A stretch of 32,000 nt of DNA, taken from assembly GCA_037444445.1 (NCBI GenBank), contig JBBIMK010000005.1:30001-62000 (forward strand), read 5' to 3'. The DNA comes from a bacterium. GTDB taxonomy: Bacteria > UBP7 > UBA6624 > JBBIMK01. Under the pieces are notes generated by a model. It saw only the letters and a program-made list of their open reading frames with translations, made no database searches and was not told the origin of the DNA. Made by a program: the position numbers and the translations under genes. Below are positions 7,858 to 24,253 of the stretch, in pieces. How positions within the stretch are numbered: the stretch's first letter is position 1; the number at the start of each line of letters is the position of its first letter.

Positions 7858-7912
7858 CTCTCTCCTCTCCTTACACTTTCTTCTCTTATTATATAATGAA
7901 TAAGAAGGATAC

Positions 7913-8827: not shown

Positions 8828-8890
8828 GCAGGAAGGTGTATTCATTTTCCCGATTATTCAGCGGATTTAAGAGGGTTTGGAAGGGGGGAG

Positions 8891-8919
8891 TTGACAAGTT
8901 GATTTTTATCCTCTATAAT
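8891..8919 (+). promoter_or_regulatory. Consensus sigma70-type promoter for the pseudopilin operon
   Basis: TTGACA (8891-8896), exactly 17 nt spacer, TATAAT (8914-8919). Both hexamers are perfect consensus. It lies 26 nt upstream of ATG 8946, with TAGGAGAGA as RBS. Confidence 0.7.
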
Positions 8920-8945
8920 AAGTAAAGTAGGAGAGATATGCGGGA

Positions 8946-10034
8946 ATGGAAAGGAAGAAAAAAGAAAAGGGATTTACGATAACGGAATTGATGGTAGTGA
9001 TTAGCATCATCGCCATCGTTTTAGGGACGAGCGTGTATACTTTCGTGCGGCATCTTCCGGAGCGTCGCCTCTCCACCTATGCTCGGATGATTTTATCGGA
9101 CCTGCGGTTTGCCGCATTCAAGGCGGCGGCGGATGGCGAACCCTATGTGGTGGAATTTTTCGGGGATTACATCAATCCCTGGCCTCCCACCGCCACACCC
9201 ACTCAACTTTTCTTTTCCGACCTCTACCGAATCTGGAAATACTCGGACTGGTATAAATATTTTAACAATTCTTGTGGAGGCCTGGCTGCCAACATTCACA
9301 AGGCAGGCTTCCCCGTTCCCTTTCTGGTTTACGATATCTTTGATAGTTCTGGAAATACAGACTTAAACCACGACCTGAACACACTCTGCGGGGATGAAAA
9401 TCAGAATGCGTTATCGGAAAGTGAGGTTCCGCTCCCCCTGTTAGAGTATGTGCATGACAACTATGTGGACCCACCGGCTCTGGCTGCTGACCCGGACTGG
9501 CGGTTCATTCGCAGGCTGCAGAGGTTTCAGCGCCGGTATAAAATCCCTTCCGGCGTGGACCTGTTAACCCGGCAGGATGAAACGAATGGCAACTCTTTGT
9601 GGGGCTATTACATCGTGTTCTTCCCTGCCGGCGGGTCTAAAGGGTTTCGGTTCATACCCCACACCGACCCCACAGACCCGGATTATATGAGAGAACCCGA
9701 TGTTGTAGAAACCATCGGAGGTGGCATCTTCTCCCTCGGCATGATTCTCACCAAGCAAGTTGCCCTTCGGATAGAGACGAAAAATCGTGAGGAAGTTCTG
9801 TTGCGGGGAACTGTGCCCCAGCAGGACCTCCCTCGGGCTTACATCCAGGCCCAGCGGTATTGCCAGAATGAGGGGTTTGCACGGGCTATTGAGGTATTGC
9901 TTGCCTCCGGTCAAATTTCCCTGGTCAGCCGAACACCTTTAAATTTTTCCCTCCCATTGAGCAAGAACCCCAACTGCAATATGAACGGGCATGATGGGCT
10001 ACCGCTGGACCCTACGGAGGCCTACTGGAGGTAG
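8946..10034 (+). CDS. Prepilin-type protein, FimT/GspH-like minor pseudopilin, oversized (362 aa)
   Basis: Class III signal MERKKKEKG|FTITELMVVISIIAIVLG (Gly-1, Phe+1, Glu+5). The following helix ...RRLSTYARMILSDLRFAAFKAAADGEPYVVEF resembles the FimT/GspH N-domain. The remaining 250 or so aa have no motif I recognise. Confidence 0.85.
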   Translation: MERKKKEKGFTITELMVVISIIAIVLGTSVYTFVRHLPERRLSTYARMILSDLRFAAFKAAADGEPYVVEFFGDYINPWPPTATPTQLFFSDLYRIWKYSDWYKYFNNSCGGLAANIHKAGFPVPFLVYDIFDSSGNTDLNHDLNTLCGDENQNALSESEVPLPLLEYVHDNYVDPPALAADPDWRFIRRLQRFQRRYKIPSGVDLLTRQDETNGNSLWGYYIVFFPAGGSKGFRFIPHTDPTDPDYMREPDVVETIGGGIFSLGMILTKQVALRIETKNREEVLLRGTVPQQDLPRAYIQAQRYCQNEGFARAIEVLLASGQISLVSRTPLNFSLPLSKNPNCNMNGHDGLPLDPTEAYWR

Positions 10035-10035
10035 G

Positions 10036-11595
10036 ATGATGCGATTTCGCGGGTTTACGATTTTAGAGTTTATGGTGGCGGCGGCGATATTTCTCCTCGT
10101 GGTCATTCCCCTGGCGCGGCTCTATGTTTCCAGCCTGGATGTGGTAAAAAATTCTGAGAATTACACCACCGCACTTCACCTGGCGGAAACCCGTATGCAA
10201 GAGGTGGAGTCTTTCTACTCCAGCAATGTGCCGTTTGGATACGATGGAGGCATACCTCTGGATTTTGACGGCTGTGCCGGGAATCCTTATCACCTGAGGT
10301 ATACAACGGGTGTGGGCTGGCGGCCGGACGACCCCTATGTTCGGCGGATTCGCACCCCCGGAGCCACTGACACTCCTATTCCTCCGGCGGCGGGTGAGCC
10401 CCGCTCCGGTGGTTCCTGGACCACCATTTGCCCCGAATATCTTACCGCTCCACCCGCTTTTACCCCCATCCGTGTGCCTCCATCCGATGGCGATTATTAT
10501 TTTTACAACGATGCAGTGTATATTATGCTGAACCCGGACCGGATTCCCGGGAATGTGAACGATGATACTGCGGAACTATCAGCCATTTCCGCCATCAACG
10601 AGGGGCTGGACCAGGTGCAAATCATCCAGGCTATCATTGCCGCTCGTTTAGACCCGGTGGATGCCTTTGCCATTTACTACGGAAGGCCGGACTTAGACCC
10701 GGTGGCTCGCATTGACGGCATAGAGGATTACAACGAAATCCTGGACCCTTCCCTCCTCACGCGCCTCTCCACCGACACCAATGTGCCCAATCCAGGGTAT
10801 AACGCTTGCACGGATGTGAGATACTTTGATGTTCCCTGGCATCGCTTCGGCTACGCCCGTATCGTGTGCGGGACAGACATTACACCTCCACCTTCTACTC
10901 CGCCTGCGGTGCAGGAATGGGTGTTTGACCCCCGAATTATTATGGATAGCCAGCGGGACGCTGTGGTGGCGGAGATTCGCAACGCCACGAAAACTTATGC
11001 CAACTTCAAACGAATCACGGAAATTACTGGCGTTTTCTATATGGGGGACGACCGAAACGGGGATGGCATCTTTGACCGGAACGATTATCCCAACTGGTGG
11101 CACTTTTATTTTCAAGCCTCAGACCCATATTCTATGAGCCAGCGTGTGTATGGCAGGATGATTCGTGTTTCCGTCTTCTGGCGGACGGGAAAGAAACAGC
11201 CCGACCCGTATAATTCGTTCCGCCAGACCTCCGGGCTTCCCCGTCGCGTGGTGGACTTAGAAAAGAAGGTTCAAATCGTGAAATTCATCGCGGACCCGGA
11301 TAACAACCCCTGCGATGACACTTCAATTTTTTTGGGCATTCCCGACCCTTCCTCGGGGTCTTCACGCGTTACAGACGCCTATGCGGCTTCCCGCCACACT
11401 CCTGGACCCGTTTTCAACGATGGCTTTTTGAGTTTCTCCACCACGACGAGCGATCCCGCCTACCCATACGACCATGCGGATGAGCGGTTTGTAACGGAAT
11501 ACAGCCCTCCGATGAGCCTGGAACCTGCCCGCCTGGGTGTAAATTCCACCAGCCCGGAGCACTTCCTGGACCCCCAGTGCGTCATTCAGAGGTAA
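10036..11595 (+). CDS. Prepilin-type protein, PilV/GspI-like minor pseudopilin, oversized (519 aa)
   Basis: Start set at ATG 10036 (GGAGG at 10027-10031; 1 nt after the upstream stop TAG 10032-10034). Signal MMRFRG|FTILEFMVAAAIFLLVV with Glu+5, followed by SENYTTALHLAETRMQEVESF (PilV/GspI-like). Contains the Ca-loop-like DDRNGDGIFDRND (11047-11085). Confidence 0.8.
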   Translation: MMRFRGFTILEFMVAAAIFLLVVIPLARLYVSSLDVVKNSENYTTALHLAETRMQEVESFYSSNVPFGYDGGIPLDFDGCAGNPYHLRYTTGVGWRPDDPYVRRIRTPGATDTPIPPAAGEPRSGGSWTTICPEYLTAPPAFTPIRVPPSDGDYYFYNDAVYIMLNPDRIPGNVNDDTAELSAISAINEGLDQVQIIQAIIAARLDPVDAFAIYYGRPDLDPVARIDGIEDYNEILDPSLLTRLSTDTNVPNPGYNACTDVRYFDVPWHRFGYARIVCGTDITPPPSTPPAVQEWVFDPRIIMDSQRDAVVAEIRNATKTYANFKRITEITGVFYMGDDRNGDGIFDRNDYPNWWHFYFQASDPYSMSQRVYGRMIRVSVFWRTGKKQPDPYNSFRQTSGLPRRVVDLEKKVQIVKFIADPDNNPCDDTSIFLGIPDPSSGSSRVTDAYAASRHTPGPVFNDGFLSFSTTTSDPAYPYDHADERFVTEYSPPMSLEPARLGVNSTSPEHFLDPQCVIQR

Positions 11596-11673
11596 CCCTG
11601 AGGAAAAGATAAGATGATGAGATGAGGTATGAAAATGAGAAAACGAAAAAAAGATGAAAAGGGGGCGAAGTAG

Positions 11674-12825
11674 ATGAGCCGAAAAAAAATGTCTGTGTAT
11701 GGGTTTACACTGGTGGAACTCCTGGTGGTGATTACCATCATCGGGATTCTTATCGGGCTTGCCCTTCCGGCTTATAACCGGGTTAAGGAAGCGGCCCTGG
11801 AACTGCGAGTGGAAAACAACATCCATGCCATTGATGTGGCACTCCAGTCCTTCTCCACCAAGAACAACGGCTGGTATCCCGGGGTGGCATATGATATAGA
11901 CGGGGTGCTGGACTGCGTGGGTGGCGATGGTATTCCAGAGCGGAGTTTCTCCTGCGATGATACGATAGGAAATGCTCATCCGGGAGTTTTCCCCAGTGCG
12001 GGCATCCTCGGCGGGCGGATGGACCTGATGATTACTCCGGGAAGAGGTCCATTTATGACCGGCAGTTCCAATCCGGACCGGAGCCTGTGGGACCGCCTGT
12101 ATCTGGATGGGGATCTGGAAACTTATCCGCTGAATCCTTTCCGCACCACAGAGAACAACCTCCGCCCGATGATGAATGTTTTTGAGGTTATGGTGACCTC
12201 TGGCGCAGGGCCTGCTCGGGGCTGGGTGCTGGAATGCCTCAGCCTGCCCGATGTGCTCCCCACTTCCCTTATGACCAATTCTGGCTGGTATACCGATGAA
12301 CGGTTTAATAACACCGCACGACCCATTACTGGCACACCGGGTAGATTTGTCATCGGCGGGACCACCGGTTCCCCTGCCACCTGCGATGACCTCACCTACA
12401 ATCTCGGAAATGGCTGGGAGCCCGGCTGGGCTAACCCCAATAACTATCCTTCCGGCGATTTTTCCTACATCCCCTTAGACCCGGTGGAAAATCCGGACCG
12501 GAATAATGACGGTGTTCCGGATAATGCGATGTATATGGTTTTCGTCCAGAACTATTTTCTGATAGGCTACGGAGCCAGGCGCTCGTGGGATTCCAAGAAG
12601 GTGGTGAACTGGGAAGCCATCGCGGATTCCAATGGGGATAATATCCCCCTGGGGGCCGGGGATGGGCTGAAATTCTATGCCCCTCTGGGGCGCATCAACC
12701 CTGCTGACCTCTCTACGGTGAACGGCACTCCTGTACCCTATGAAGTTCATGCACTTCGGGCACTCCGGGGAGCCATTGTAGTTCAAGCCTCCGCTTACAA
12801 CGACCAGTTAACGGCGGCCCGATAA
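11674..12825 (+). CDS. Prepilin-type protein, GspG/PilA-like candidate major subunit, oversized (383 aa)
   Basis: MSRKKMSVYG|FTLVELLVVITIIGILIGLALPAYNRVKEAALELRVENNIHAIDVALQSFSTKNNGWYPG closely follows the GspG/major pilin N-terminal consensus. RBS GGGGG lies 8 nt upstream. Contains DRNNDGVPDN (12496-12525). Confidence 0.85.
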   Translation: MSRKKMSVYGFTLVELLVVITIIGILIGLALPAYNRVKEAALELRVENNIHAIDVALQSFSTKNNGWYPGVAYDIDGVLDCVGGDGIPERSFSCDDTIGNAHPGVFPSAGILGGRMDLMITPGRGPFMTGSSNPDRSLWDRLYLDGDLETYPLNPFRTTENNLRPMMNVFEVMVTSGAGPARGWVLECLSLPDVLPTSLMTNSGWYTDERFNNTARPITGTPGRFVIGGTTGSPATCDDLTYNLGNGWEPGWANPNNYPSGDFSYIPLDPVENPDRNNDGVPDNAMYMVFVQNYFLIGYGARRSWDSKKVVNWEAIADSNGDNIPLGAGDGLKFYAPLGRINPADLSTVNGTPVPYEVHALRALRGAIVVQASAYNDQLTAAR

Positions 12826-12839
12826 AACAGGGAAAAGGG

Positions 12840-14369
12840 ATGAAGAGAAAGACGACAGCCGGGTACACCCTGGTGGAACTCCTGGTGGTGCTCGCCCTTC
12901 TGGGTATCTTTCTGACCATCTTTGTGGCAGTGGTGAAAATCACTATGAATACGGTTCGCACCGTGGAAGGGCGAACAGATGCGGGTCAGAAAGCGCGGGT
13001 TGCCCTCGCATTCATCAAGTCTCGCTTGCAGGAAGCGACCTCTTTTGATGTGGGATTTCAGCAGTTAAATCTCACGGGTGGAGGCAGCACCCCGAGAGCA
13101 GATAAAAGCCCCTACTTTGACTATCTGAACATCTCAGGACCTCACACAGAGCCAACCCCTCCAGCCTCTCATCCTCCTCTGGTTCGCAATGATTTTCTGG
13201 ATACTTCTGAGATTTCAGGGGCTTGGTGGGACTTTATAGAGTTAAATCCCAACCCGTGGGTTCCTCCCCCACCCCGCAGTATTAACTGGCATATGCGGTA
13301 TGAGCCTCCCCAGGCGTTTGGCGACCCGGACAACGATTTTCAGCCCTACGACCCTGTGCAGGGGACGGGCTATCCGGATGCCAACTGGAATGTAGATGAC
13401 CGGAATCCGGCGCAGGATTGCCCTGCCCCGAGCGGTTATACGAGTTTAACGGCGTGCACGGGGTCTCTGCGCCCTCGCTACCAGACTGGATACGAGGATT
13501 TAGACGGAAGCGGGATTCTGGACCGGATATGGGAGTCATATGTGCGGACGCTGGTGTTTGAGATTCAGCCGCCTTTCCCTCCCACGGTGGCGGAGCCCGT
13601 GTGCCTGAACGTCTCCCCAGCGATTAGACGAGCGGCGGAAGTAGAGCGGGACATCATCACCCTCGCCCACACCTGGAAAGAAAAAACTTTCTGGTATGAT
13701 GAAAACTGGAACGGTATCGTGGAGCCCCAGGAAACACGCACCTATGACTTCGTCCTGTATGAGCGCCGCACGAGATATTTCAAAGACCCCACCATCAATC
13801 TGGACCTGAACTGTGACGGTGTGGTAGTAACGGACCGCACGATAGACGACTATGACGAACGCTTCCGAACCATTGAACTTCCCGTCGTCCACGGGATTAT
13901 AGATGTTCAGTTTCGCTTCTTTGATGGGAATAATCATGAAGTCAAACCCTGCACCAGCCTGGACGGGGTTCCGTCCAGCAATGGCTGGTCCTGCTATATT
14001 GACCCCACCCGTTTTCCTTCCTACACCTTCCCTAACCCTGCCTTTCGTCCACTGGGCCTGTTTTATCGGGTTCATTACTGCGTGAATCGGGCAGAAGATT
14101 GCGCCGAGGACTCTCTGTCGACCATCCTGGGTGCCATCAGGTCAGTGGAAATCACCGTGGTGGCGGGCTCTGATGATACCCTGAACCTGATGCGAAGGAC
14201 CCGGGATGTCAACGGAGTCATTCTCTCCAATCTGACCAATGTGGACCCGAAGGTCGTTGGCGCCGTGGATTATCTGGGTGCCACTCCCTATTCTAACCTG
14301 TATGTTCCAGGAAATCTGGTGGTGCTCAAAGAGCGGGTCTACTTGCCCACTCTTTTTGTGGTGCCATAA
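12840..14369 (+). CDS. Prepilin-type protein, PilW/GspJ-like minor pseudopilin, oversized (509 aa)
   Basis: MKRKTTAG|YTLVELLVVLALLGIFLTIF with Glu+5 (Tyr at +1), then ...GQKARVALAFIKSRLQEAT as in PilW/GspJ. Contains DLDGSGILDR (13497-13526) and DLNCDGVVVTDR (13803-13838). Confidence 0.8.
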   Translation: MKRKTTAGYTLVELLVVLALLGIFLTIFVAVVKITMNTVRTVEGRTDAGQKARVALAFIKSRLQEATSFDVGFQQLNLTGGGSTPRADKSPYFDYLNISGPHTEPTPPASHPPLVRNDFLDTSEISGAWWDFIELNPNPWVPPPPRSINWHMRYEPPQAFGDPDNDFQPYDPVQGTGYPDANWNVDDRNPAQDCPAPSGYTSLTACTGSLRPRYQTGYEDLDGSGILDRIWESYVRTLVFEIQPPFPPTVAEPVCLNVSPAIRRAAEVERDIITLAHTWKEKTFWYDENWNGIVEPQETRTYDFVLYERRTRYFKDPTINLDLNCDGVVVTDRTIDDYDERFRTIELPVVHGIIDVQFRFFDGNNHEVKPCTSLDGVPSSNGWSCYIDPTRFPSYTFPNPAFRPLGLFYRVHYCVNRAEDCAEDSLSTILGAIRSVEITVVAGSDDTLNLMRRTRDVNGVILSNLTNVDPKVVGAVDYLGATPYSNLYVPGNLVVLKERVYLPTLFVVP

Positions 14370-14380
14370 GAGGTGAGAAT

Positions 14381-17300
14381 ATGTTCAGAAAGCAACAGAA
14401 AAGAACCGCCTTCTTGCGGGTAAAACAAAAGGGGATTGCCCTTCTGGCAGTGCTGGTGTTCGTGGCTTTTGCTATGCCCATTGTGGTGATTCTCCTCTCT
14501 CTGACCGCTGTGGAGGCTCAATTTCCTAAAGCGGAAATTACCACAAGGACCACAGAAGAGGTATCCAATGCGGGGTTTCAGGATTTTTTACAGCATCTGT
14601 TCACTTCGGCCCCACGGTTTTTATGGCAGTGTGATGCAGTGGGCGCAAGAGCCAACGATGACTATCGGTATTACTCTCCATTTCTAACCGTAGATTCACT
14701 GGCTTCTTTTTGGATTCGGTATCCTTTTTTACAGCCTGCGGAAGTGTATGATCCTGACATAACCTCCCGGTTTCGCACGGCGAATTCTCTGACCGTTTAC
14801 CCGTATTATGAATGGATGGACCTGGCGGACCCCTATTGTGAGCCTGACGCCGGGCTGGGTGGAGGCACACCTGCCGCCGGGGTGAGAACCCATCTATTTC
14901 TCGCCTTTATGCCCTTTGGCAAGCGGTCTATAGCCTTTGACATCCCGGACCCGCTGGGGCTTGACCTGAGGTCTTACATTAACTTTGCACCCGGTGACCC
15001 CTGGAATCTCACGGGCAGGATGAATAGTATGCCGGTTCCCAATCAACCACTATTTAACCTTCTATCGCTGGTGAATGATGCGAAACGCGCTCCCTATGAA
15101 TTTTTTATCGCCGGTGATACCGACCCGCAAGCCAACCATCCTTACAATCCCTACGAGCGGGTGGAGAATAGCGGATTTCCCACTTCCGTCTGGCCTTATG
15201 ACCCCGTCCTACCGGGTGAAGGCTTCTCCCTCCCTGTCCGCGGAAGCATTCTATCGGACCCGGATACGGGCAGACCGTTAGAAAATCCTTTGCCCACTTC
15301 CAATCACCTTTCCTACGATGCGGGAGTAGACATTGTTCCCACCGGGTTTGAGGTGTCAGCCACGGATGAAGGCTCCCGTTTCCCTCTGTATGACTTCTAC
15401 CACAACCCCGATGATGGGTATTTCTTCAACCCGCTTCCCAATCCTGACCCGGCTACCAGCCTGCCTTCCCGGCGCTTCCTGGATAACCTGAACAACACCA
15501 GCTGGGTCAATACAGGCTACATTCAGCAGCATGTGGCGCTGGGCTGGCTGATTAAAGGGTTCGGCACGGATCCGGCGGCGAGCAGGTCCAAAAATCGTGC
15601 TCTCCTCTCGTATATGACTTATTATGATATGGGTGATGTGGGGGCCCCTCCCGGTGCCTCCGACCCCCAGGTGGTGAACAACACAAGGGATGATTACGAT
15701 GGAAACGGATATGTGGATGAGCCTATGCGACCTTTCCCCGGCGATTTGAAAGAAATTCAGGATGTGAACCTGGTAAAAGATACAGGCGAGAGAAGGGGCT
15801 CTGGAATTGGTCCTGCTGTCTTTTCCTGGATAAAGCATCTGGTCACACTCTACTCCGCCCCCGCGGAACAACTCAGCACTCTGGTGAATGACCCCATTAT
15901 CACAGAATTGCTGTTTGGACAGGGTAGTCTTCCCTGCACTTCGTTCACCATTTACTCCGATAAAGCCTTCCATTATTGCACTCTTTTTGACCTGTATACG
16001 CCGATTCAAGACCAGCCTGCCCCAGGACAGCCCGGCTGGCCCACCACGAACACCTGCACCTCATTCAGGGATTTAGACGGGGATGGAAATCCAGACACGC
16101 CTCAGGATTGCCTCCTGGCTTTCACTGACACGAATGCAAACAAGAACTTGAATGATACCCTCAACTGGATGACTGCGTTCGGGCAGGGAGATGGTAATGC
16201 CAACAACAACATTGTGGACCCGGAAACTTTTTATAACTTTCTGACAAACACGAATTCTACCGTTGCAGTCGAATTAACACCTCTTCATGACCTTTTGATG
16301 AGATACCTCTCGCCTTTTTTCCCTGCTCCGTTCGACTACTTTCAAGATTTGCTTGCCCGTAGAGTGTTAGGGCACTGGGCGGCGTGGCAGTATTTTTTCC
16401 GCTATTCCCTTACGCCCAATACTAACAATTGCTTTGGCATCAACGGGCTGGACGGAGACGACGATATGAAGCTCGCCCGGTATCACGGCATTGCGGATTC
16501 CCTCATCCCCATTCCTACAGTAGGACCCTGGTTTGACCCGGGGAATGTGACGGAAGCCTGTGGGACCACCACTTCCGGCGACCCGATGGATTTTCCATCT
16601 TTAGTTGTGGGGGTAGATTTAGGCTGTGGATTCAATCCTGGTGACCCTCCACCCTGCCCACCCGGTCAGTCTAATGGCATATTGGAAGTTGACCCAAATG
16701 ACCCCTACTGCGACAATTTAAGTCAGAATGGACTGGGGGCGGGTAATCCTCCTGTGTATCCGGACTGTTACCAGCCTCTGATAGAAGATGGGCTCCTCAT
16801 CCGCCCCGCTTTCATCGTACCAGACCGATTGCCTCAAGGCCTCAGTTTTGACGCGAGTAATCCCATCCCCGGGAGTATCCGCCTGACCGATGAATTAATC
16901 CTTTTTGAAATACTTTCCTCCATCGCTTATGCGGATTCGCCCTACCGAACTTACTTAGACTCCGACCTGGACAGCAGGGACGATAATAATGGACCTGGGA
17001 ATCCCCCTGACCCATTCCCGGTGAATGACATCTGCGACCCTCAGGGGATGCGGGTTCAGGTGGGCGCCTCTATCTTAAATAGCAGTAGCCAGAATAGCGG
17101 ATATTATGAGGCGGACGGACGGGATACACCGGGGGTGGGGGCTTCCTGCTCTAATCCACCCGGGGGAACCCTGCCCGATGGATGGCTAAACCAGGACCCG
17201 GCAAATGCTCGACCCCTGTATTTCCGGGGGAAAATCAACATCAACACCGCTCCCTTCCCGGTTTTGAAAGCCCTGTTCGCCAAACTCCTGACGGATGATG

Positions 17301-18013
17301 TAACGGAGATTGATGACATGGGACGATTTGCCCGCAATATGGCTCTTTCCATTCTCAATTACCGGGAATGGTTCTATATGAATCCGACCCTGGATGTGAA
17401 TGATGCGAACCAGGGGTCCGCCGCGGACTGGGTTGGAAATTTCACCGATGGCATTTTTGGGATGACTGGCTTTTGTGCTCCATCATTATACACCCAGTTC
17501 CTTCAATCGGTGGCAGGTTTTGACCCGTATTCTGCCGATAATCCTTCCGTCTGCGCCAATGCTTTTCGGGCGAAACTCAATTTCCCAAACCATTCCATCA
17601 ATCCGCCCTTCCGGAATATCGCTCAACTGCTGGATGTGGCGTGGGAGCCCACCTATCCTGTCTCAGCCACCCCTCCCTCTTCTGCCGATGACCCGAGGGA
17701 TGTGATTGCCAAGTGGCGCGTCCTCTGCTTAAACGACGATTCAAGTATTATGGGCCCAGAGTGCCGGGATGAATCCGACCTGGATGGTTTACCATCGCCT
17801 CCATATGAACTCACCCGCTCCGCCGCTGTTCTTGCCCGCATTGACCAGGACATCACCGTGAAATCTTTTGCCTATCGCCTGGAGAGTCTGGGGAAAGTGG
17901 GCCCTTCCTCCCAGGGGAAACTCTTGATTTACAACCTGGGAGCCTTTCCACCCCTGAAAGAAATTGAACTGGTCGTGAAAGATGAGACCTCTCTCTTCAC
18001 CAAATACTACTGA
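14381..18013 (+). CDS. GspK/PilX-like pseudopilin-class protein, giant (1210 aa)
   Basis: N-terminus ...RVKQKGIALLAVLVFVAFAMPIVVILL lacks Glu+5, as in GspK/PilX. A C-terminal segment YFRGKININTAPFPVLKALF (17234-17278 for ININTAPFPVLKALF) matches the GspK NxNTA helix-hairpin-helix motif. RBS GAGGTG. Last gene of the pseudopilin block, as gspK usually is. Confidence 0.75.
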   Translation: MFRKQQKRTAFLRVKQKGIALLAVLVFVAFAMPIVVILLSLTAVEAQFPKAEITTRTTEEVSNAGFQDFLQHLFTSAPRFLWQCDAVGARANDDYRYYSPFLTVDSLASFWIRYPFLQPAEVYDPDITSRFRTANSLTVYPYYEWMDLADPYCEPDAGLGGGTPAAGVRTHLFLAFMPFGKRSIAFDIPDPLGLDLRSYINFAPGDPWNLTGRMNSMPVPNQPLFNLLSLVNDAKRAPYEFFIAGDTDPQANHPYNPYERVENSGFPTSVWPYDPVLPGEGFSLPVRGSILSDPDTGRPLENPLPTSNHLSYDAGVDIVPTGFEVSATDEGSRFPLYDFYHNPDDGYFFNPLPNPDPATSLPSRRFLDNLNNTSWVNTGYIQQHVALGWLIKGFGTDPAASRSKNRALLSYMTYYDMGDVGAPPGASDPQVVNNTRDDYDGNGYVDEPMRPFPGDLKEIQDVNLVKDTGERRGSGIGPAVFSWIKHLVTLYSAPAEQLSTLVNDPIITELLFGQGSLPCTSFTIYSDKAFHYCTLFDLYTPIQDQPAPGQPGWPTTNTCTSFRDLDGDGNPDTPQDCLLAFTDTNANKNLNDTLNWMTAFGQGDGNANNNIVDPETFYNFLTNTNSTVAVELTPLHDLLMRYLSPFFPAPFDYFQDLLARRVLGHWAAWQYFFRYSLTPNTNNCFGINGLDGDDDMKLARYHGIADSLIPIPTVGPWFDPGNVTEACGTTTSGDPMDFPSLVVGVDLGCGFNPGDPPPCPPGQSNGILEVDPNDPYCDNLSQNGLGAGNPPVYPDCYQPLIEDGLLIRPAFIVPDRLPQGLSFDASNPIPGSIRLTDELILFEILSSIAYADSPYRTYLDSDLDSRDDNNGPGNPPDPFPVNDICDPQGMRVQVGASILNSSSQNSGYYEADGRDTPGVGASCSNPPGGTLPDGWLNQDPANARPLYFRGKININTAPFPVLKALFAKLLTDDVTEIDDMGRFARNMALSILNYREWFYMNPTLDVNDANQGSAADWVGNFTDGIFGMTGFCAPSLYTQFLQSVAGFDPYSADNPSVCANAFRAKLNFPNHSINPPFRNIAQLLDVAWEPTYPVSATPPSSADDPRDVIAKWRVLCLNDDSSIMGPECRDESDLDGLPSPPYELTRSAAVLARIDQDITVKSFAYRLESLGKVGPSSQGKLLIYNLGAFPPLKEIELVVKDETSLFTKYY

Positions 18014-18026
18014 TTTTTTATGCGAC

Positions 18027-18055
18027 TTGACTTTTCTTTTTGTTTAAGAGATAAT
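18027..18055 (+). promoter_or_regulatory. Candidate internal promoter upstream of the secretin gene
   Basis: TTGACT (18027-18032), 17-nt spacer, GATAAT (18050-18055), in the 85-nt gap between the GspK-like stop and the secretin GTG start. Confidence 0.45.
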
Positions 18056-18098
18056 TAAAGTACCAGATGACAGGAACAGGTGGAAGGAGGGATCTGGA

Positions 18099-21000
18099 GT
18101 GAGGGAAGTGAGCAGGGGTTTTTTCTTTTCTCTACTGGGGTTCTTCGCCGTCGCAACTCCCTTGATAGCGGCGAATGAGAAGGTAAAAGTGAAGTATGAG
18201 GTGAAGGAGCAGGAGGACCGGGAAGTGGTGGCCATTCATTTCTCCTCTCCCGCCACTTACCGGATTGACACGGTGGACTTTCCCACCCGGTTAATGGTGG
18301 TTATTGAGAACGGGGAACTGGATACAGGTGTTCCCGCCACTCTGAATCGGGAAGGGAAAGTCATCAAGCAAATTCGGACGATTCTCGTGGGCAAGCCCGA
18401 GCAGATGAACCTGGTTCTGTACATCAATATTCGGACTTCTCTGGAGAAGGATGATTATTATTCCAAGCCCACCAGCGATGTGGATTTGGAAGTGGGTGTG
18501 TATAAGTGGGTGCTGGATAAATCCAAGAAGCCAGCGGTTCCTCCGGAGGAGAAGCCGAAGCCGAAAGAGGAGATAAAGCCACCTGCTAAACCCGAGGAGA
18601 AGCCACCGGAGGTTCCTGCTCCTCCCAAGCCGGAGGAGAAGCCTCCCGAGGCTCCACCCCGTCCCGGTCGTTTTAGCCTTTCCTCCATCACCTGGTCTTC
18701 TGTGGAGAACAAGGACCGATTTGAACTCCAGGTTACTCCGATGGACCATCTGGAATACACAGTTATAAAAAATTATTATCCCACACGTGTGGTGATTACT
18801 CTTCGGAATACTGTTCCGGGAGATGAAGCAGGATTTGTGGACAAACTGCTGGAGAAATCCATCACGGGATTGAATGTGTCCCGGTATCGGGGGTTGATAT
18901 TTGAGGACCATAAGGGGCCATCAGTGGAAATCGTTCTATATCTGACGGAGGACACGGCGATTTCTTCTTATGTAGAAGATGGGAAATTAGTGGTGGAAGT
19001 GATGGCACCTGTGGTTGCGCCACCGGTGCCACCGGCGCCGCCGGCACCTCCTGCACCGCCGGAGGTTCCACCGGCGCCTCCTGCACCGCCACCTGCACCA
19101 CCGGAGGTTCCACCGGCACCTCCTCCGCCGGAAGTACCTCCGCCTCCACCGCCACCTGCTCCACCGCCACCTGCTCCGCCTGCACCTCCCGTAGCTCCTC
19201 CGCCCCCTCCGCCTCCACCTCCGCCGGAAGTACCACCACCTCCTCCCCCTCCTCCACCTCCACCTCTTCCTGTAAAGAAAGCGGCATTTGAGATTCTTGC
19301 CTACGAGTTCACTTCTGCAGAGAATCTGGAAACCGTGACGATTACCTTCAGCGCTCCTTTGAGTAGCATAGATTATTCACCGCCGGCAAAATATTACTTT
19401 CCCACCCGAATCACGGTGACGGTAAAGGATGCTATTCTGAGCGAGACTCTGGGTGGAGAAGCAGGTTTTGAAAAGCCTGTAGAGGGGCGTACCATTCACA
19501 TGGTCAAAGGAGTATTTTATCCGGAAATACCGATGACCGAAATTGTGCTTTATCTGCGCGAGGACCGGATATACAACTATAAGGTTGTGAACAGCACTCT
19601 CGTGATTGAGGTGCAGGCGCCCGCAGTGGCTCCTCCACTGAAGCCGGAGGTAAAACCTGCACCACCTACGACGCCTGTGGAAGCCATATCTAAAGAGGAA
19701 TTTCCGGAGATAGATATATCCGTGAAGGAGGGGGCTTATGAACTACCACCGCCCCCGCGAAGGAAATATAAGGTGAGCGACCATGTGGTTCAGGTGGACA
19801 CACCGGGGCTTATGCCTGTGTCCGACATCATCATGCAAATGGCACGAGAAGCCAATGTGGGCGTGGTGTTTGACGCCAGTGCCTTCGCCGGGGTTGTTGG
19901 TGGACCCGGTGGCGGTGTAGGAGGTGTGGGCGGTCCAGGGGCGGGTGGGACCGGCCTCGGTAGTGCACGAGCCCTGATTATGGTTCACCTTCCCCCGATG
20001 CCCTTTGATGATGCCCTGGATGTGGTGACGAAAGCCTCGGGGCTGGAATGGAGGGTTCGCGAGTCGGAAGCGCCCTCCCTGGAAGGAACGGGCACCCCGA
20101 TTGTCCTGATTGGGCAACGATACCGCCTGGAGCAAGCCTACGGCATTCAAGTGTTAGATGCGATTCAGATTACTTATGCCAATCCGACAGCGCTGGTGCA
20201 GATGATTCTGGCGCTGGATTTGCACCCCTGCTTCAGCACGATTACAGGAGGCGGAGGATTCGGTGGCGGATACGGAGGATTCGGCGGCGGATTCGGTGGT
20301 GGCCTCGGTGGCTTAGGCGGCGGTCAACTGCCTTCCACCGGTAATTTCCTTTATGTTGCGAAGCCGAATCTGCTGGTTATCCGTGGAACACCGGAGATGA
20401 TAGCCGCAATCAAGGAAGCGGTATTAAAAGTTGACCGTCCACCCCGACAGGTAGAGTTGAGTTTCTCGCTGTTTTCTATAGACCGGAGCGCAGTGGTGAA
20501 CTATGGCCTGGCAGCACAGCCTTTAACGACCTATCTTTCTGACCGTTTTCGGGTGAACTTCGGAGCCCAGGGTGGTCTGGCTGTGGCGATTCTGGGGAAG
20601 AACCAAAGCCAGCAGATAGAGGATTTTACCACCGCTCTGGATGCCCTGGTTTCCCAGAGAAAGGCAAAGATTCTGACTGCGCCCCGGGTGGTGGCGGTTG
20701 ACGGCGTTCCGGCACAAATCAACATTACCACGGCTACGCCTGTAGTCTTCACCGTCATCACTTATGTTCAGGCTCCTGGCGGTGGTTTCACTCCGGTTCA
20801 AACCACGGTAATTCAAACGTTGACCACGGGTATCTCTTTCGGCGCTCTGGCGAACATAGATAATGAGGGAAATACCTGCCTGGGGTTAGCGCCCTCATTC
20901 AGCGAAATCAAGGGATTTGTTACCACGCCCCAAGGAAACCAGGTTCCTATCACTGAAACTACCAGCATCTCTACCATCGTTTGCTTAAAGGATGGTGATA

Positions 21001-21179: not shown

Positions 21180-21248
21180 TATAATTGAGGATGAAAGAGG
21201 ATTGCCTGAGGGATGAGGGATGTATTCAAAAGAGGGAGGTGAAAGGAG

Positions 21249-23345
21249 ATGGCGTTAGGAATTAGTTTGAGGAGAGGAAAGGAGAAGGAGAAGCCGGCGG
21301 GTTCTGTGGAGCGGCGGGAGCGGCGTGCCCGGGTGCCCCGACGAAAAATCAAGAGGACGAAATCATTTATAGGAATAGATTTTCTTTCCAATCAGGTTCG
21401 GATTACGCAAATTAGCAAAAAGGGGAAAGAGGTAAAACTGGAACGGGTGACGGTGGGTGAAATACCATCAGAGATTTTCCGCCTGGGAAAGGTTTCCGAT
21501 GTAGGAGCGCTGGCGGAAGTTCTGCACAAAATCATGACTGAAGCGGGCATCACAGGTTCCTTTGTGGTCCTCTCCCTTTCCGGGATGAACTCCGTCGTTC
21601 GGGTTATCACCCTTCCCAAGATGACGCGTTCCCAGTTGAGAGAGACGATGGAAGTCCAGTTAGGGCAATTCGTTCCCTTTCCGCCCGAGGACACGGTCTA
21701 CCAATACAAAATCCTCGGGGAAGTGGTGGAAGAGGAAACGCCCATGTATGAAATCCTGCTGGCGGCGGCCCGATATTCCCTCATTCATCCCCTCGTCCAG
21801 GCAGTCATCTCGCTGGGGCTTCAGCCCGTTGCGGTCAAAGTTGGATATGTGAGCGTTCTTTCAGTACTCAAGCGATATTATGAAGATTTTGCCCAGGCGG
21901 TAGCCATCGTTGACCTGCGAGATAAGTTCTGCGACATATCCTTTGTGGCTGAGAATTCCTTCCAGTTCTCTCGGACGGTAGAGTTTGGGTTAGAGACGAT
22001 TTACACCAAGATTGGGAGTCTGGTGGGGCTAACCACCAAAGAGATACGGGAACGATTGAAGGAAGGCGAGATAGACCTGATGGCACCGGTGGCGACGGAG
22101 GTAGAAGAAGGTGCAAGTGAGACGACTCGGCTGGTGGAGGGGTTAAAGAACGCCTTTCAGAGTTTCGCCAACGAGTTAGTTCGCTCAGTCCGCTACTATG
22201 AGGCAAAGAGCCGACGGAAACTCCGTGTTGGACGAATCGTGCTTGTCGGCGGTGTGTCCAATTTTGTGAACCTGGAATCCTTCTTGATGGAAACCACGGC
22301 GGTGGATGTAGTGATTGGGGACCCGCTGGAAAATGTGGATTATTCTACGGCGGAATGGTTTCCCCCGGAATACAAGGCGAATATCAGTGAAATCGCGGTG
22401 AGCCTCGGGCTGGCAGCGGATGGGATGAACCCGAAAACCCGAAAAGACTTGAACCTTTTGCCCCGGGAATTTCTGGTTCGCAAGCAGGTTCAAAATGTGG
22501 TGGTGGGCTTTATAGCCGTTGTGGCCGTGGCAGGGGTGTTTATGTATACCGTCCGGACTAATCTGCTAAATGAACTGCAAAGGATGCAAGCGGAACAGGC
22601 TCAGTGGGACCAAAAGGTAAAGTCGGTAGAACCAGACGCCAAGCAATTTGACGAAATCCAGGCCCAGATTACCAATGTTTCTCCTCGGATTCGGACCATA
22701 GCCATGGGCTTTGGTTCCCAGTTTCCCTGGACGGTGCTTCTGGAAGAAATTCAGAACCTGACTCCGAAGAATGTATGGTTAGGTCAAACGGCGGGTGGAG
22801 CCTCGACTCCTGAAGGACTCATCCTTGAAAAAATTCCGGCGATTGAGGTCAAAGGACAAGCCATTGGGCTCAGACCTATTTTCACCTTCGCTAAAGCCAT
22901 TTACGACTCTGAGATTTTCGTGGGCGATGTAATGGTGGAATATCAGGAGGCTACCCAGGTAGGGGGAGGAGGGGGAGGAGGTGGCCCAGCGCCGGGAGGG
23001 AGAGGAGGAATGACGCTGTCCTTTCCATTTTCAGAACCTTCCTCTGCTAATGCCAATGTCCCTCTGGGGGTGGGTTCCGACCTGGGACAATTGCTCCAGT
23101 ATTTTGAAATAGTTCGGGAATTTCCGATTCTGTATAATTTTACACTGAAATTTCAGATGGACCAAGATTTGATACAGCCGAAAGCCTTGATAGAGAAATT
23201 TAATGAAATAATGGGAACAGCAGGAGGTGGTGCAGGTGGAACTGGAACCCAGGGTCAACCCGGCGGAGCTGCCCCCGCGGGGGGGGCGCCCGGGGGTTTC
23301 CAGCCCGGACCTGGCGGTCCCGGCCCCGGCCCCGGCCCCGGGTGA
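21249..23345 (+). CDS. pilM: PilM-PilN fusion protein (GspL-like topology) with glycine-rich C-terminal tail
   Basis: RBS GGAGGTGAAAGGAG. Actin-like ATPase fold motifs FIGIDFLSNQVRI, VDLRDKFCDISF, IVLVGGVSNFVNLESF (PilM). These are followed in the same ORF by the PilN signature LNLLP (22449-22463), the TM helix VVVGFIAVVAVAGVFMYTV, the coiled coil NLLNELQRMQAEQAQWDQKV and a periplasmic domain. The protein ends ...GGFQPGPGGPGPGPGPG. Confidence 0.85.
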   Translation: MALGISLRRGKEKEKPAGSVERRERRARVPRRKIKRTKSFIGIDFLSNQVRITQISKKGKEVKLERVTVGEIPSEIFRLGKVSDVGALAEVLHKIMTEAGITGSFVVLSLSGMNSVVRVITLPKMTRSQLRETMEVQLGQFVPFPPEDTVYQYKILGEVVEEETPMYEILLAAARYSLIHPLVQAVISLGLQPVAVKVGYVSVLSVLKRYYEDFAQAVAIVDLRDKFCDISFVAENSFQFSRTVEFGLETIYTKIGSLVGLTTKEIRERLKEGEIDLMAPVATEVEEGASETTRLVEGLKNAFQSFANELVRSVRYYEAKSRRKLRVGRIVLVGGVSNFVNLESFLMETTAVDVVIGDPLENVDYSTAEWFPPEYKANISEIAVSLGLAADGMNPKTRKDLNLLPREFLVRKQVQNVVVGFIAVVAVAGVFMYTVRTNLLNELQRMQAEQAQWDQKVKSVEPDAKQFDEIQAQITNVSPRIRTIAMGFGSQFPWTVLLEEIQNLTPKNVWLGQTAGGASTPEGLILEKIPAIEVKGQAIGLRPIFTFAKAIYDSEIFVGDVMVEYQEATQVGGGGGGGGPAPGGRGGMTLSFPFSEPSSANANVPLGVGSDLGQLLQYFEIVREFPILYNFTLKFQMDQDLIQPKALIEKFNEIMGTAGGGAGGTGTQGQPGGAAPAGGAPGGFQPGPGGPGPGPGPG

Positions 23346-24216
23346 AGTCCCCGCTTTTGATTTTGCAAAAGCCCAGAAGAGAAGCCAGACCTTCCTCTGG
23401 GGAACCGCTATCTTCGCAGTTCTCGCTATCATTGCCATCCTCTACGGATATTATTCCGGCGTGGTCTCCCCCTTAAAAACTCAAATAGAAGCCTCTCGCT
23501 CTCAGATTGGGCAGTTGAAGAGTAAGTATGACGCAGATAAAAAGAAACAGGAGGCTCTCCCTTATCTGAAAGTTCTGCAAAAAGCCGTGAATGACAAGTG
23601 GCAGTTCGTTCTGGCTGAAGATGTCCCTGAGAAGCGTCGGTGGTTCTTCAAAAGTTACTGGGAAGTGCTGGACCATTTCGGGCAGAACTGGGTGGATACC
23701 TGTGAAATCTCCTATGTCGTTCCGATAGAATTTAAGCTGAAACTTTTGGAGAATCGGGACTGGACCTATGAACACACCTGGACTGCGAGGAAAATGTCGG
23801 ATATCAGCACGAAATGGAGGCAGTCAGGCCAGACTCAAAAAGCTCGTATCTCTGAGACGGGGATGGCCATCACCGGAAATGACCTGTTGATTACCCTGCC
23901 GTTTGAGATGAAGGTGGCAGGAGAATACCAGAGCATCAAAGATTTCCTGGATAATATGTTCTACCATTCTCCTTACTTTATGGCAATCTTTTCCATCAAG
24001 CTCTCGTACATTTCCGAGATGACTACCATCGGGAGTTTTCAGCCTGTGGGAACTATGGAGTTAGCAGAAATGAAAGGGGCATATTTTTACCTCAATCCTA
24101 CGGGCGCTCCGAACACGAGTTTCCTGCCTGCCCAGATGGGTGGAGGAATGGGATCTATGGGTGCTGGCGGTGGAGGCTCAGGAATCCGGGAACTTCCAGG
24201 CGGTGCTGCATTATGA
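23236..24216 (+). CDS. PilO/GspM-like bitopic inner-membrane protein (start uncertain: GTG 23227, 23230 or 23236)
   Basis: Cytoplasmic basic stretch FAKAQKRSQ, TM helix TFLWGTAIFAVLAIIAILYGYY, coiled coil LKTQIEASRSQIGQLKSKYDADKKKQEAL, and a C-terminal domain with FEMKVAGEYQSIKDFLDNMFYHSPYFMAIFSIKLS (PilO-like pattern). There is no ATG/GTG/TTG in frame between 23236 and the TM helix. AGGAGG at 23222-23227 lies 8 nt before GTG 23236. Confidence 0.6.
   Translation: MELEPRVNPAELPPRGGRPGVSSPDLAVPAPAPAPGEVPAFDFAKAQKRSQTFLWGTAIFAVLAIIAILYGYYSGVVSPLKTQIEASRSQIGQLKSKYDADKKKQEALPYLKVLQKAVNDKWQFVLAEDVPEKRRWFFKSYWEVLDHFGQNWVDTCEISYVVPIEFKLKLLENRDWTYEHTWTARKMSDISTKWRQSGQTQKARISETGMAITGNDLLITLPFEMKVAGEYQSIKDFLDNMFYHSPYFMAIFSIKLSYISEMTTIGSFQPVGTMELAEMKGAYFYLNPTGAPNTSFLPAQMGGGMGSMGAGGGGSGIRELPGGAAL
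23279..23342 (+). repeat. Simple-sequence tract: G8 homopolymer plus (CGGCCC)x3 hexamer repeat
   Basis: G8 at 23279-23286, G5 at 23292-23296, and CGGCCC repeated at 23321-23338 with an imperfect unit CGGTCC at 23315-23320. It lies inside the region where two ORFs overlap in different frames. Confidence 0.9.
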
Positions 24217-24253
24217 GAGAACACGACCCAGACTTCAAGGAGGTGTTAGATTC

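Follow-up and report, generated by a model that had tools for sequence, protein, structure and literature searches.

A conserved set of five oversized prepilins beside type IVa-like pilus genes in an uncultured bacterial lineage

Results

Five prepilin-type genes behind a consensus promoter

The window, by which we mean the whole 32-kb stretch of DNA analyzed here, contains five consecutive prepilin-type ORFs that together encode 2,983 aa and occupy positions 8946–18013 of the forward strand (Table 1). A sequence-only reading had proposed these ORFs and a consensus promoter ahead of them, and we recovered all five with the coordinates and lengths of Table 1. The intergenic gaps are, in order, 1, 78, 14, and 11 nt. 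The I-like ORF formally starts at an ATG at 9991 (534 aa), its 519 aa being counted from MMRFRG|FTILE. The promoter was also found and is the sole 12/12 match to the sigma-70 consensus within 7800–26000; a 12/12 promoter is kept 5′ of the first pilin gene in three related loci (L001, L002, and L003). A scan of the 78-nt gap ahead of the G-like gene for promoter-like sites returned none, so no consensus match points to separate expression of G.

Table 1. Pilin block, promoter, and neighboring pilus genes in the window
Feature	Position	Strand	Details
Prepilin peptidase (PilD/GspO type), 304 aa	7913..8827	+	A24_N_bact 3.2e-30, Peptidase_A24 3.7e-12, both above gathering score
Sigma-70 consensus promoter TTGACA-17 nt-TATAAT	8891..8919	+	12/12 match
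H-like (GspH/FimU-type) prepilin	8946..10034	+	362 aa; signal KG|FTITE
I-like (GspI/PilV-type) prepilin	10036..11595	+	519 aa; signal RG|FTILE
G-like (GspG/PilA-type) prepilin	11674..12825	+	383 aa (373 mature); signal YG|FTLVE; candidate polymerizing subunit
J-like (GspJ/PilW-type) prepilin	12840..14369	+	509 aa; signal AG|YTLVE
K-like (GspK/PilX-type) giant, putatively apical pilin	14381..18013	+	1210 aa; without Glu5; NxNTA at 953-957
PilQ-type secretin, 1026 aa	18099..21179	+	AMIN domain(s), poly-Pro linkers; Secretin 1.5e-30; AMIN 22.1 bits (cut-off 20.5)
PilM, probably PilM-PilN fusion, 698 aa	21249..23345	+	PilM_2 1.7e-32; TIGR01175 132.5 bits vs cut-off 133
PilO/GspM-like, 329 aa, weak assignment	23227..24216	+	T2SSM 0.0041, PilO 0.0056, both below gathering score

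A class III signal consists of a short basic leader ending in Gly, F, Y, or M at +1, Glu at +5, and a hydrophobic helix of ~20 residues. The signals of the H-, I-, G-, and J-like proteins, exactly the four picked out earlier, are the only ones in any frame of the window. The Pfam N_methyl model (PF07963, gathering score 21.2) scored 30.6 bits for H (E-value 2.2e-7), 27.9 for G, and 26.1 for J (5.9e-6); the I-like protein lies slightly below the cut-off with 20.9 bits, and the model matches 14/14 I orthologues. E5 is invariant across every H, I, G, and J orthologue, and by the class III signal and N_methyl (TIGR02532) criterion these four proteins belong to the type IV pilin/prepilin superfamily. 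The sequence-only reading had likened the five N-terminal helices to FimT/GspH, PilV/GspI, GspG, PilW/GspJ, and GspK, with which the best NCBIfam matches agree: the top models are GspH for H (4.8e-8), GspI for I (2.5e-5), and GspG for G (3.1e-9), GspK is the best match of K, and J matches Verru_Chthon protein C (5.9e-8) and GspJ (0.03) as well as HpsC and ComGF. The Pfam GspH model matches 3/11 H orthologues. All Gsp equivalog cut-offs compared were missed (GspG 37 vs. 88.9, GspH 33 vs. 80, GspI 24.7 vs. 44.4, and GspK 15 vs. 130 bits), the matches covering the N-terminal 50–70 residues only.

The fifth protein had been described as GspK/PilX-type, without Glu+5 and with an NxNTA motif. It indeed begins with ...KQKG|IALLAVLVF, in which the mature N terminus G|IALLAVL has no E5, and carries GKININTAP at 951–959; N953, N955, T956, and A957 are invariant in 9/9 K orthologues, and K is the terminal pilin gene in every block. 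With no Glu5, the NxNTA motif, and the last position in the set, the K-like protein has the hallmarks of the GspK/PilX type. Since T2SSK and GspK match it weakly and below threshold at 951–974 (E = 0.0075 and 0.014), we base its membership in this type on motifs and synteny.

Canonical pseudopilins are roughly 120–330 aa long, compared with 362–1210 aa in the set found here, and the subunits are 2–4 times the size of canonical GspG–K proteins or type IVa pilus (T4aP) minor pilins, as far above the usual range as had been claimed. The compositional bias reported for the extra mass is likewise present: Pro, Asp, and Asn are ~2–3 fold more frequent than in neighboring proteins, and Trp and Tyr are mildly raised. 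The Cys counts of the five proteins are all even (4, 6, 4, 8, and 18). We observed 5 DxDxDG-type loops against ~0.14 expected, and a DRNGDGIFD loop is present in the I-like protein.

Neighboring machinery and conserved synteny

The pilin block is flanked by pilus machinery genes (Table 1). A cognate prepilin peptidase lies upstream and adjoins the block also in L001, L005, L006, and L007. The secretin, whose top NCBIfam models are MshL and PilQ, comes after the K gene wherever a locus extends that far. The PilM orthologue of L006 has an additional weak PilN match, and the PilO-like assignment is made mainly by position after PilM(N); PilP was not identified in a scan of the window. A T4aP alignment complex and an AMIN-bearing secretin are thus found together, the PilO component being only weakly matched.

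Relatives were sought in metagenomes by a DNA-pattern scan with the family-specific motif F[AS]YIPLDP. The lineages that carry the five-gene block are unclassified uncultured bacteria: the H-I-G-J-K block was found with the same order and sizes in about 20 loci, and order and sizes are kept without exception in the related loci that are long enough to cover the block. A scan of genome contigs with an FTLVELLVV-type helix pattern gave only Planctomycetota-type prepilins, the match being limited to residues 1–80. In L006 and L007, the block lies directly 3′ of pilB-pilT-pilC-pilT-like(-methyltransferase)-pilD. The two PilT/PilU-family ATPases of L006 score 474 and 414 bits against a pilT_fam cut-off of 319, and PilB and PilC are the top-scoring models for their genes. 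No pilB, pilT, or pilC was found near the block in the 32-kb window or in L001, L003, and L005.

The sequence-only reading had suggested an uncharacterized branch of the type IV filament superfamily. As worded, that suggestion found no support: the surrounding machinery is of ordinary T4aP type, with PilD, PilM(N)/PilO, and a PilQ-like secretin bearing AMIN in the window and, in syntenic relatives, PilB, PilC, and two ATPases of the PilT/PilU family. What is new is the subunits and not the machine class.

The top named N-terminal models of H, I, and G are all Gsp models, as would be expected if the genes encoded the periplasmic pseudopilus of a type II secretion system (T2SS)-like machine, with G as GspG and H–K as the tip of a piston for folded cargo. 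Moreover, K has its own NxNTA and there is no PilY1, as in T2SS (PMC13533445), and a filament that the secretin is too narrow to pass would suit a pseudopilus that is not extruded. We nevertheless consider this origin very improbable. The Gsp names reflect library content, as NCBIfam has few models of T4aP minor pilins. A T2SS has a platform of GspC, GspL, and GspM, a GspD secretin without AMIN, and no retraction ATPase. Here, GspC and GspL were unmatched and the sole trace of GspM is the weak T2SSM match of the PilO-like ORF, whereas the strong PilM_2/pilM match, the AMIN domain on the secretin, and the two PilT/PilU ATPases of the syntenic clusters are T4aP features.

Globular regions without known relatives

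Only the N-terminal helices of the five proteins match known families, structures, or one another. Beyond the first ~70 residues, a scan with Pfam and NCBIfam gave no domain; matches of the H, I, and J profiles to PDB sequences were confined to alpha1, and profile searches detected no similarity of the globular parts to the FimU, PilV, PilW, and PilX structures. The extra mass had been said to contain no nameable motif, and in our searches no named family or solved structure matched it; nor did homology searches place the proteins in a characterized family of large pilins. The closest sequence matches are the N-terminal helices of DUF1559 and Verru_Chthon proteins. Membership of the G family in DUF1559 (PF07596, H-X9-DG) was rejected: PF07596 gave no match in the Pfam scan, and hhalign against 30 DUF1559 proteins aligned residues 4–76 only. 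The Verru_Chthon cassette A–D (TIGR02596-02600), for which a literature search found no paper, was rejected as well: H scored 31.1 bits against protein D (cut-off 70) and J 32.3 bits against protein C (256.5), both matches being confined to residues ~8–70, and K had no match to protein A. We also rejected a paralogous origin of the five heads by expansion of one domain, the similarity in all-against-all hhalign comparisons being limited to alpha1 with the exception of I and J, which share ~130 N-terminal columns.

Sequence conservation and purifying selection extend to the large globular parts. Their dN/dS is 0.12–0.17 across the five proteins (H 0.15, I 0.13, J 0.135, and K 0.17), in comparison with 0.18–0.20 for PilD, and invariant residues are spread along the full length of all five alignments. 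Mature orthologues measure 304–361 aa for H, 453–517 aa for I (n = 14), and 456–557 aa for J (n = 11), and the size of the G family is held within a narrow range of 334–376 aa. Richness in Pro, Asp, and Asn and the low pLDDT of the AlphaFold2 (AF2) model of K (27.7) could indicate decayed or chance ORFs whose extra sequence is disordered filler, the filler also being foreseen in the sequence-only reading. The low pLDDT is explained by the alignment of 7 sequences behind the model, which was unusable for fold search, and we do not read it as disorder because conservation and dN/dS argue otherwise. The conserved sizes and order in about 20 loci and the dN/dS values effectively refute the filler explanation, whose remaining probability is negligible, and the confident model of G also speaks against it.

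G-like protein as candidate polymerizing subunit

The G-like protein is the most conserved of the five and aligns over its full length at 30% identity, whereas the others keep mostly alpha1. About 47 full-length homologues carry invariant motifs along the whole length, and among the orthologues E5 and G14 are found in 14/14 and P22 in 12/14. The AF2 model has a pTM of 0.80 and combines a long alpha1 (13–63) with a multi-stranded beta-sheet core. In pilins, the head is an alpha/beta-roll fold packed on alpha1-C. Foldseek comparison of the model with the PDB and BFVD returned nothing under E = 3.8, neither a pilin nor another fold, and a pilin fold past alpha1 is thus a candidate only. Matches to the globular domain were found in only 11 of 1.84e9 representative proteins. 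For G at least, the additional residues seem to form one enlarged globular domain with variable loops rather than a linker followed by a module. While PilA-type major pilins of T4aP are typically 110–210 aa long, the sole PilA-type candidate in any family locus is this protein of 373 aa. Its conservation, the E5/G14/P22 residues, and the modeled alpha1 and beta-sheet core favor a role as the major, polymerizing subunit.

The gene layout also parallels the P. aeruginosa minor-pilin operon (fimU-pilVWXY1E), which ends with the major-pilin-like PilE. All five proteins could accordingly be minor priming and tip pilins of a conventional T4aP, with G of PilE type, the giant domains restricted to the tip, and a PilA of normal size encoded at another site in the genome; the ATPase and platform genes of the window's clade lie elsewhere, and other pilus genes may do so too. 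Modular pilins that carry bulky modules occur widely and are thought to be located at the tip (PMC8179133), and a major pilin of 373 aa would be an outlier, as the maximum among 1,955 surveyed sequences is 297 aa (PMC11046646). This arrangement nonetheless appears less likely to us. No further prepilin signal was found in the 24 family loci scanned, including two full pilB-to-pilM clusters, and G is the subunit conserved over its whole length, with tightly held sizes and the signature of polymerizing subunits.

K-like protein as candidate licensing pilin and adhesin

The K orthologues span 1113–1635 aa, with PD40 repeats in 4/9, and a C-terminal ...Y/FRxES/xxG segment is kept within the window's clade. 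Searching with the K-family alignment added nothing, returning the same 6 proteins, and the K profile gave one weak match to a PD40 propeller in the PDB, contributed by the longer orthologues. A scan of the five pilin-like ORFs and of other large ORFs in the window found no PilY1/Neisseria_PilC domain, and no extra gene lies between J, K, and the secretin in the syntenic blocks. In type IV filament systems without PilC/PilY1, PilK homologues with large insertions are reported to provide the licensing beta-strand in cis (PMC13533445). Given the absence of a PilY1 gene, the retained GspK hallmarks, and the roughly 900 extra residues, K most likely combines an apical licensing pilin and a tip adhesin in one chain. 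The Ca2+-loop-like motifs found here and the PD40 propeller repeats of distant orthologues would fit the adhesin role.

Discussion

Few prokaryotic nanomachines are as widespread as type IV filaments, whose versatility is credited to the globular domains of the pilins and to tip adhesins. The locus described here is neither a T2SS nor a new machine class. It encodes a conserved five-gene pilin set in which, judged from sequence, every subunit is oversized and the globular parts lie outside all described families, and it has a giant K-type pilin in place of PilY1, no gene for which was found in the window or the related loci examined. Probably, the five genes are the full pilin module of a type IVa-like machine in an uncultured diderm lineage, in which H, I, J, and K make the tip, K acts as the adhesin, and G polymerizes. 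That the pilus is retractile is suggested by distant relatives in which the block follows pilB, two pilT/pilU-family genes, pilC, and pilD; for the window, retraction and the T4aP class are extrapolated from these relatives, with which the G protein shares only 30–32% identity.

We infer the following order of assembly. The adjacent prepilin peptidase would cleave and N-methylate the four class III prepilins, and the K-like protein would be anchored and processed via its GspK/PilX-type N terminus. H, I, J, and K would build a priming complex on the inner-membrane platform, similarly to GspH-I-J-K and FimU-PilV-W-X, with K placed at the tip as a combined licensing pilin and adhesin. G, with its E5, G14, and P22 and a globular domain of ~300 aa, would be inserted below the tip and build up the body of the filament. 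This body would leave via the AMIN-bearing PilQ secretin and be retracted by the PilT-family ATPases. By scaling of known pili, subunits of 41 kDa are expected to give a filament about 9–10 nm thick. Such a filament would be at or above the lumen of characterized secretins, a point against this model.

More tentatively, G may be the true major subunit, which would make the structure a retractile pilus of ~41-kDa subunits with a globular fold not seen before, capped by a licensing and adhesin K protein of 1200–1600 aa. The pilin set may then build a pilus far bulkier than any yet studied: G would exceed the longest of the 1,955 surveyed major pilins by about 25% and be nearly double the M. xanthus pilin in length, and the filament could present a functional binding surface, possibly dependent on Ca2+, from end to end. 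If true, the thickness obtained by volume scaling would challenge ideas on the fiber width that can pass a PilQ secretin and raise the question of the maximum size of a polymerizing pilin that still passes the secretin and can be retracted. Another question is whether K pilins of 1200–1600 aa also follow the "beta-strand in cis" licensing that was put forward in 2026 for systems without an adhesin. The G-like globular domain and the heads of H, I, J, and K provide new domain families for annotation. In metagenome-assembled genomes, such proteins are now labeled merely as "type II secretion system protein" or "hypothetical".

Among the closest known systems is the T4aP priming and tip complex. 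As in FimU-PilV-PilW-PilX-PilY1-PilE of P. aeruginosa and PilY1 with four minor pilins in M. xanthus, H/I/J/K prepilins and a major-pilin-like subunit are found together; the machine context is the same, with PilD, AMIN-PilQ, and PilM/N/O here and PilB/C/T in relatives, as are the expected roles in priming assembly and occupying the tip. The set differs from T4aP minor pilins in that each subunit is 2–4 times larger and the gene order is H-I-G-J-K, and from the PilY1 systems in having no PilY1 gene and a K-type pilin that itself reaches 1113–1635 aa. With GspG-H-I-J-K of T2SS, the set shares the Gsp-type N-terminal helices, a K without Glu5 and with the NxNTA of the GspK alpha-domain, and the lack of a separate tip adhesin, but its machinery is of PilM/AMIN-PilQ/PilT type and not of GspC/L/M type.

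The large apical pilins of systems without PilC/PilY1 likewise have a very large extra region, with a proposed cis licensing beta-strand and tip function, but the regions found here show no detected sequence or domain similarity to any solved structure of such proteins, and K is 2–3 times larger than CpaL. The DUF1559 proteins of Planctomycetota and the Verru_Chthon proteins resemble the set in that they are GspG-like prepilins of 300–400 aa, or form cassettes of large pseudopilin-like members, and come from poorly studied phyla. Bulky modules on a pilin module are also known from modular type IV pilins, such as the S. sanguinis PilB (vWA) and PilC (lectin) and CofB of ETEC; over 1,200 such proteins with 264 architectures have been described, the largest noted being 860 aa (PMC8179133). 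In contrast to these, all five proteins are oversized here, including the G-type one, and have no Pfam/InterPro-type module signature. In M. xanthus, PilA is 208 aa long, and large globular domains of major pilins pack tightly and stiffen the filament (PMC11046646). With 373 aa in its mature form and a different globular domain, the G-like protein would, if it is the major subunit, extend this trend toward large pilins.

A block of five oversized prepilin-type genes

The sequence-only reading had described an operon of five giant prepilin-type proteins, and the ORFs, their sizes and their sum are found as it gave them (see table). We call the proteins H, I, G, J and K after their GspH-, GspI-, GspG-, GspJ- and GspK-like N termini. 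The genes are separated by 1, 78, 14 and 11 nt; the I ORF can formally be extended back to an ATG at 9991, and the listed length corresponds to the start MMRFRG|FTILE at 10036, which is preceded by GGAGG. A six-frame regex scan of the 32-kb window returned exactly four class III signals, KG|FTITE, RG|FTILE, YG|FTLVE and AG|YTLVE. Against Pfam N_methyl, H, G and J score above the gathering threshold and I lies marginally below it (20.9 bits, cut-off 21.2). K has a GspK/PilX-type N terminus (...KQKG|IALLAVLVF) without Glu5 and carries the NxNTA motif at residues 951-959 (GKININTAP), a segment weakly matched by Pfam T2SSK (E 0.0075) and NCBIfam GspK (E 0.014). The sequence-only reading is borne out in every detail of the observation.

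The consensus promoter reported ahead of the block is a 12/12 match. In L001, L002 and L003, relatives in the window's clade (L001 being 87% identical), it is conserved ahead of H; it was not found in the distant clade. In L001, a tandem duplication of ~130 bp covers this promoter and the first ~40 H codons, so that the perfect promoter is present twice and a spurious gene of 47 aa is called. The claimed residue enrichment holds for Pro, Asp and Asn, which are 2-3 times as frequent in the five proteins as in neighbouring ones; Trp and Tyr are mildly enriched. Cys counts are even throughout (4, 6, 4, 8 and 18 in gene order).

Coordinates and sizes of the features discussed
Feature	Locus	Position	Size	Remarks
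ORF	window	540-3107 (-)	855 aa	sub-threshold FG-GAP repeat match only
Prepilin peptidase	window	7913-8827		upstream of block; A24_N_bact + Peptidase_A24
Promoter TTGACA-17-TATAAT	window	8891-8919		sole 12/12 match within 7800-26000
Five-gene block	window	8946-18013 (+)	2983 aa in sum	consecutive ORFs
H, position 1	window		362 aa	mature 304-361 aa across loci
I, position 2	window		519 aa	mature 453-517 aa across loci
G, position 3	window		383 aa	mature 334-376 aa across loci
J, position 4	window		509 aa	mature 456-557 aa across loci
K, position 5	window		1210 aa	mature 1126-1635 aa across loci; orthologues 1113-1635 aa
Secretin	window	18099-21179	1026 aa	first downstream; AMIN domain above Pfam cut-off; long poly-proline linkers
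PilM	window	21249-23345	698 aa	after secretin; PilM_2 1.7e-32; probably a PilN fusion
PilO/GspM-like ORF	window	23227-24216		after PilM; weak assignment
ORF	window	24140-24481	113 aa	after PilO-like gene; one predicted TM
ORF	window	24807-25697	296 aa	after PilO-like gene; one predicted TM
Kdo-transferase ORF	window	29215-30588		
DegT-type aminotransferase ORF	window	30417-31793		
Promoter-H duplication	L001	7031-7281		
J gene in two ORFs	L002	6381-7896	281 + 216 aa	
K with PD40 repeats	L006	12888-17477		distant clade
K with PD40 repeats	L007	12864-17738		distant clade
K with PD40 repeats	L119			distant clade
K with PD40 repeats	L149			distant clade

Conservation of the block and its machinery

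A search for other carriers of the block had been proposed, and relatives were indeed found. G has ~47 full-length homologues of 340-416 aa, with identity down to ~30% and all from metagenomes or MAGs; beyond these, matches are confined to the N-terminal helix and come mostly from DUF1559 prepilins. From the contigs encoding the homologues and a metagenome DNA-pattern scan with the family-specific motif F[AS]YIPLDP we assembled ~24 loci. The order H-I-G-J-K followed by a secretin recurs in every locus long enough to show both, and no additional prepilin signal was found on either strand in any of them. In the contig of L002 the J gene is broken, through a frameshift or a fault of assembly.

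The 32-kb window contains neither a GspE/PilB-type ATPase gene nor a GspF/PilC platform gene. In L006 and L007, both distant relatives, the genes run pilB, pilT-family, pilC, second pilT-family and pilD, then directly into the block. On TIGR01420 (PilT/PilU family; cut-off 319) the two short ATPases of L006 reach 474 and 414 bits, and the top models for its long ATPase and platform protein are type IV-A PilB and PilC. By extrapolation from these relatives, and taking in PilM and the secretin with its AMIN domain, the machinery is best assigned to the type IVa pilus (T4aP) class and not to the type II secretion system (T2SS). That the five GspH/I/G/J/K-like proteins form a T2SS-like pseudopilus is improbable, being disfavoured by PilM, AMIN and the PilT context.

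Extreme poly-proline tracts (~75 residues of PPAPP/PPPP at ~aa 300-375) run between the AMIN-like N-terminal repeats of the secretin, and its N-domain region contains glycine-rich runs, GGPGGGVGGVGG... and GGGGFGGGYGGFGGGFGGG. The L001 orthologue has 1125 aa against 1026 in the window, so the linkers vary in length. The PilM ORF closes with a Gly/Pro-rich tail and contains a TM segment at about aa 415-440. It is overlapped by 119 nt by the PilO-like ORF as listed, whose true start is thus probably further downstream. The 113- and 296-aa ORFs, the latter preceded by a 325-nt gap, match no family and may encode PilP-like or other accessory proteins.

Flanking genes specify enoyl-CoA hydratases, an ABC transporter, a NuoN-like protein, an O-antigen ligase, a Kdo transferase and a DegT aminotransferase, a content that indicates a diderm host with LPS. 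At the position homologous to the 855-aa ORF, L001 has an 870-aa ORF without Pfam match. As listed, the Kdo-transferase and DegT ORFs share 171 nt; the long DegT form has no exact match in the protein collection, and its start is probably an internal Met (MKAESFEQ...).

Constraint and similarity beyond the N-terminal helix

Matches to named families are confined to the first 50-70 residues, with scores far under equivalog cut-offs: GspH for H (4.8e-8; Pfam GspH also matches 3 of 11 orthologues), GspI for I (2.5e-5), GspG for G (3.1e-9) and, for J, Verru_Chthon protein C (5.9e-8) followed by HpsC, ComGF and GspJ. K is assigned by the GspK motif only. When profiles of the five orthologue alignments were compared with all PDB sequences, pilin matches occurred only in alpha1, the N-terminal helix. 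All-versus-all hhalign likewise found mutual likeness only there, with I and J sharing ~130 N-terminal columns, and the globular heads are unrelated to one another. The extra mass had been said to contain no nameable enzyme or adhesin motif; in the searches made, the heads match neither a described family nor a solved fold.

Beyond residue 60, dN/dS against L001 is 0.13-0.17 for all five genes (0.18 for PilD), identifying the extra mass as constrained coding sequence. Disordered, unconserved filler had been named as the outcome that would overturn the proposal; instead, block and sizes are conserved across loci. Size and order conservation together with dN/dS essentially exclude non-functional ORFs or filler.

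DxDxDG-type motifs occur five times across I (aa 339), G (aa 275), J (aa 287) and K (aa 438 and 564), compared with ~0.14 expected from shuffles, and are present in orthologues too, especially of K and I. They resemble EF-hand or dockerin-like signatures and may bind Ca2+.

G as candidate fibre subunit

Of the five, G is the most conserved: at 30% identity it still aligns from end to end, in a comparison where the other four keep mostly helices. Its family has invariant residues over the entire length (GxYPG, DRL, NPF, GDFxYIPLDP, YG, PLG). Assignment to the DUF1559 prepilins was rejected, the profile-profile alignment ending at residue 76. At E <= 1e-3, an exhaustive phmmer search with residues 76-383 against 1.84 billion cluster representatives retrieved 11 proteins, of which almost all are prepilins of 312-383 aa. 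Foldseek on AlphaFold models had been suggested as a check; run for G, it started from a confident AF2 model (45 sequences; pTM 0.80, mean pLDDT 76) whose alpha1 is 50 residues long, whose beta-sheet core is confident and whose loops, where the alignment is gappy, have low confidence; it returned no match in PDB or BFVD.

In alpha1 of G, F1 and E5 are invariant, G14 is found in 14/14 and P22 in 12/14 sequences, a signature of polymerising subunits. P22 is missing from J, and in I a Pro near +20 takes its place. G is also the sole GspG/PilA-like gene in every locus. We favour, with some reserve, a reading in which the block encodes the pilin set of a T4aP-type machine: H, I, J and K would prime assembly and make up the tip, K would double as adhesin and G would polymerise below them. 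A less probable but serious alternative is that all five are minor pilins and the fibre is built by a conventional PilA encoded elsewhere. If G does polymerise, scaling subunit volume at ~1 nm rise, calibrated on the ~7 nm M. xanthus pilus (208-aa subunits), suggests a filament roughly 9-10 nm wide for 373-aa subunits.

K and the tip

The K gene is last in the block, and its NINTA motif is invariant, 250-370 residues from the C terminus. AF2 on a 7-sequence alignment gave a pLDDT of 27.7, too low to be informative. The K profile weakly matches a TolB-like PD40 propeller in PDB, and Pfam finds PD40 repeats in 4 of 9 orthologues, those of 1530-1635 aa, and none in the window's K. These repeats recall the beta-propeller of PilY1, a tip adhesin for which the block has no gene. 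A study of 2026 showed that the licensing of tip complexes depends on a C-terminal beta-strand joining the PilK sheet, which comes in trans from PilC/PilY1 or in cis from PilK, and that large insertions tend to be found in the PilK homologues of systems lacking a tip adhesin, its examples being CpaL (~600 aa) and the T4aP used for competence by Thermus and Vibrio (PMC13533445). By analogy, a block without PilY1 and with so large a K would fit the cis logic at extreme size.

Comparison with known pilins

Large pilins are not new in themselves: an InterPro survey counted >1,200 pilins of modular type, with 264 architectures and a largest noted size of 860 aa (PMC8179133), and M. xanthus PilA, a large major pilin, has 208 aa (PMC11046646). 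The proposal of an uncharacterised branch of the type IV filament superfamily is not upheld in that form: the subunits are what is novel, and the machine, with PilM, an AMIN secretin and PilB/PilC/PilT in relatives, is of known class. What is new is that the whole H-I-G-J-K set is oversized and size-conserved, with heads apparently from outside described families. Mature G (373 aa) exceeds every major pilin among 1,955 surveyed PilA sequences (mean 141, maximum 297 aa; PMC11046646), and K is the largest K-type pilin found described in the literature searched.
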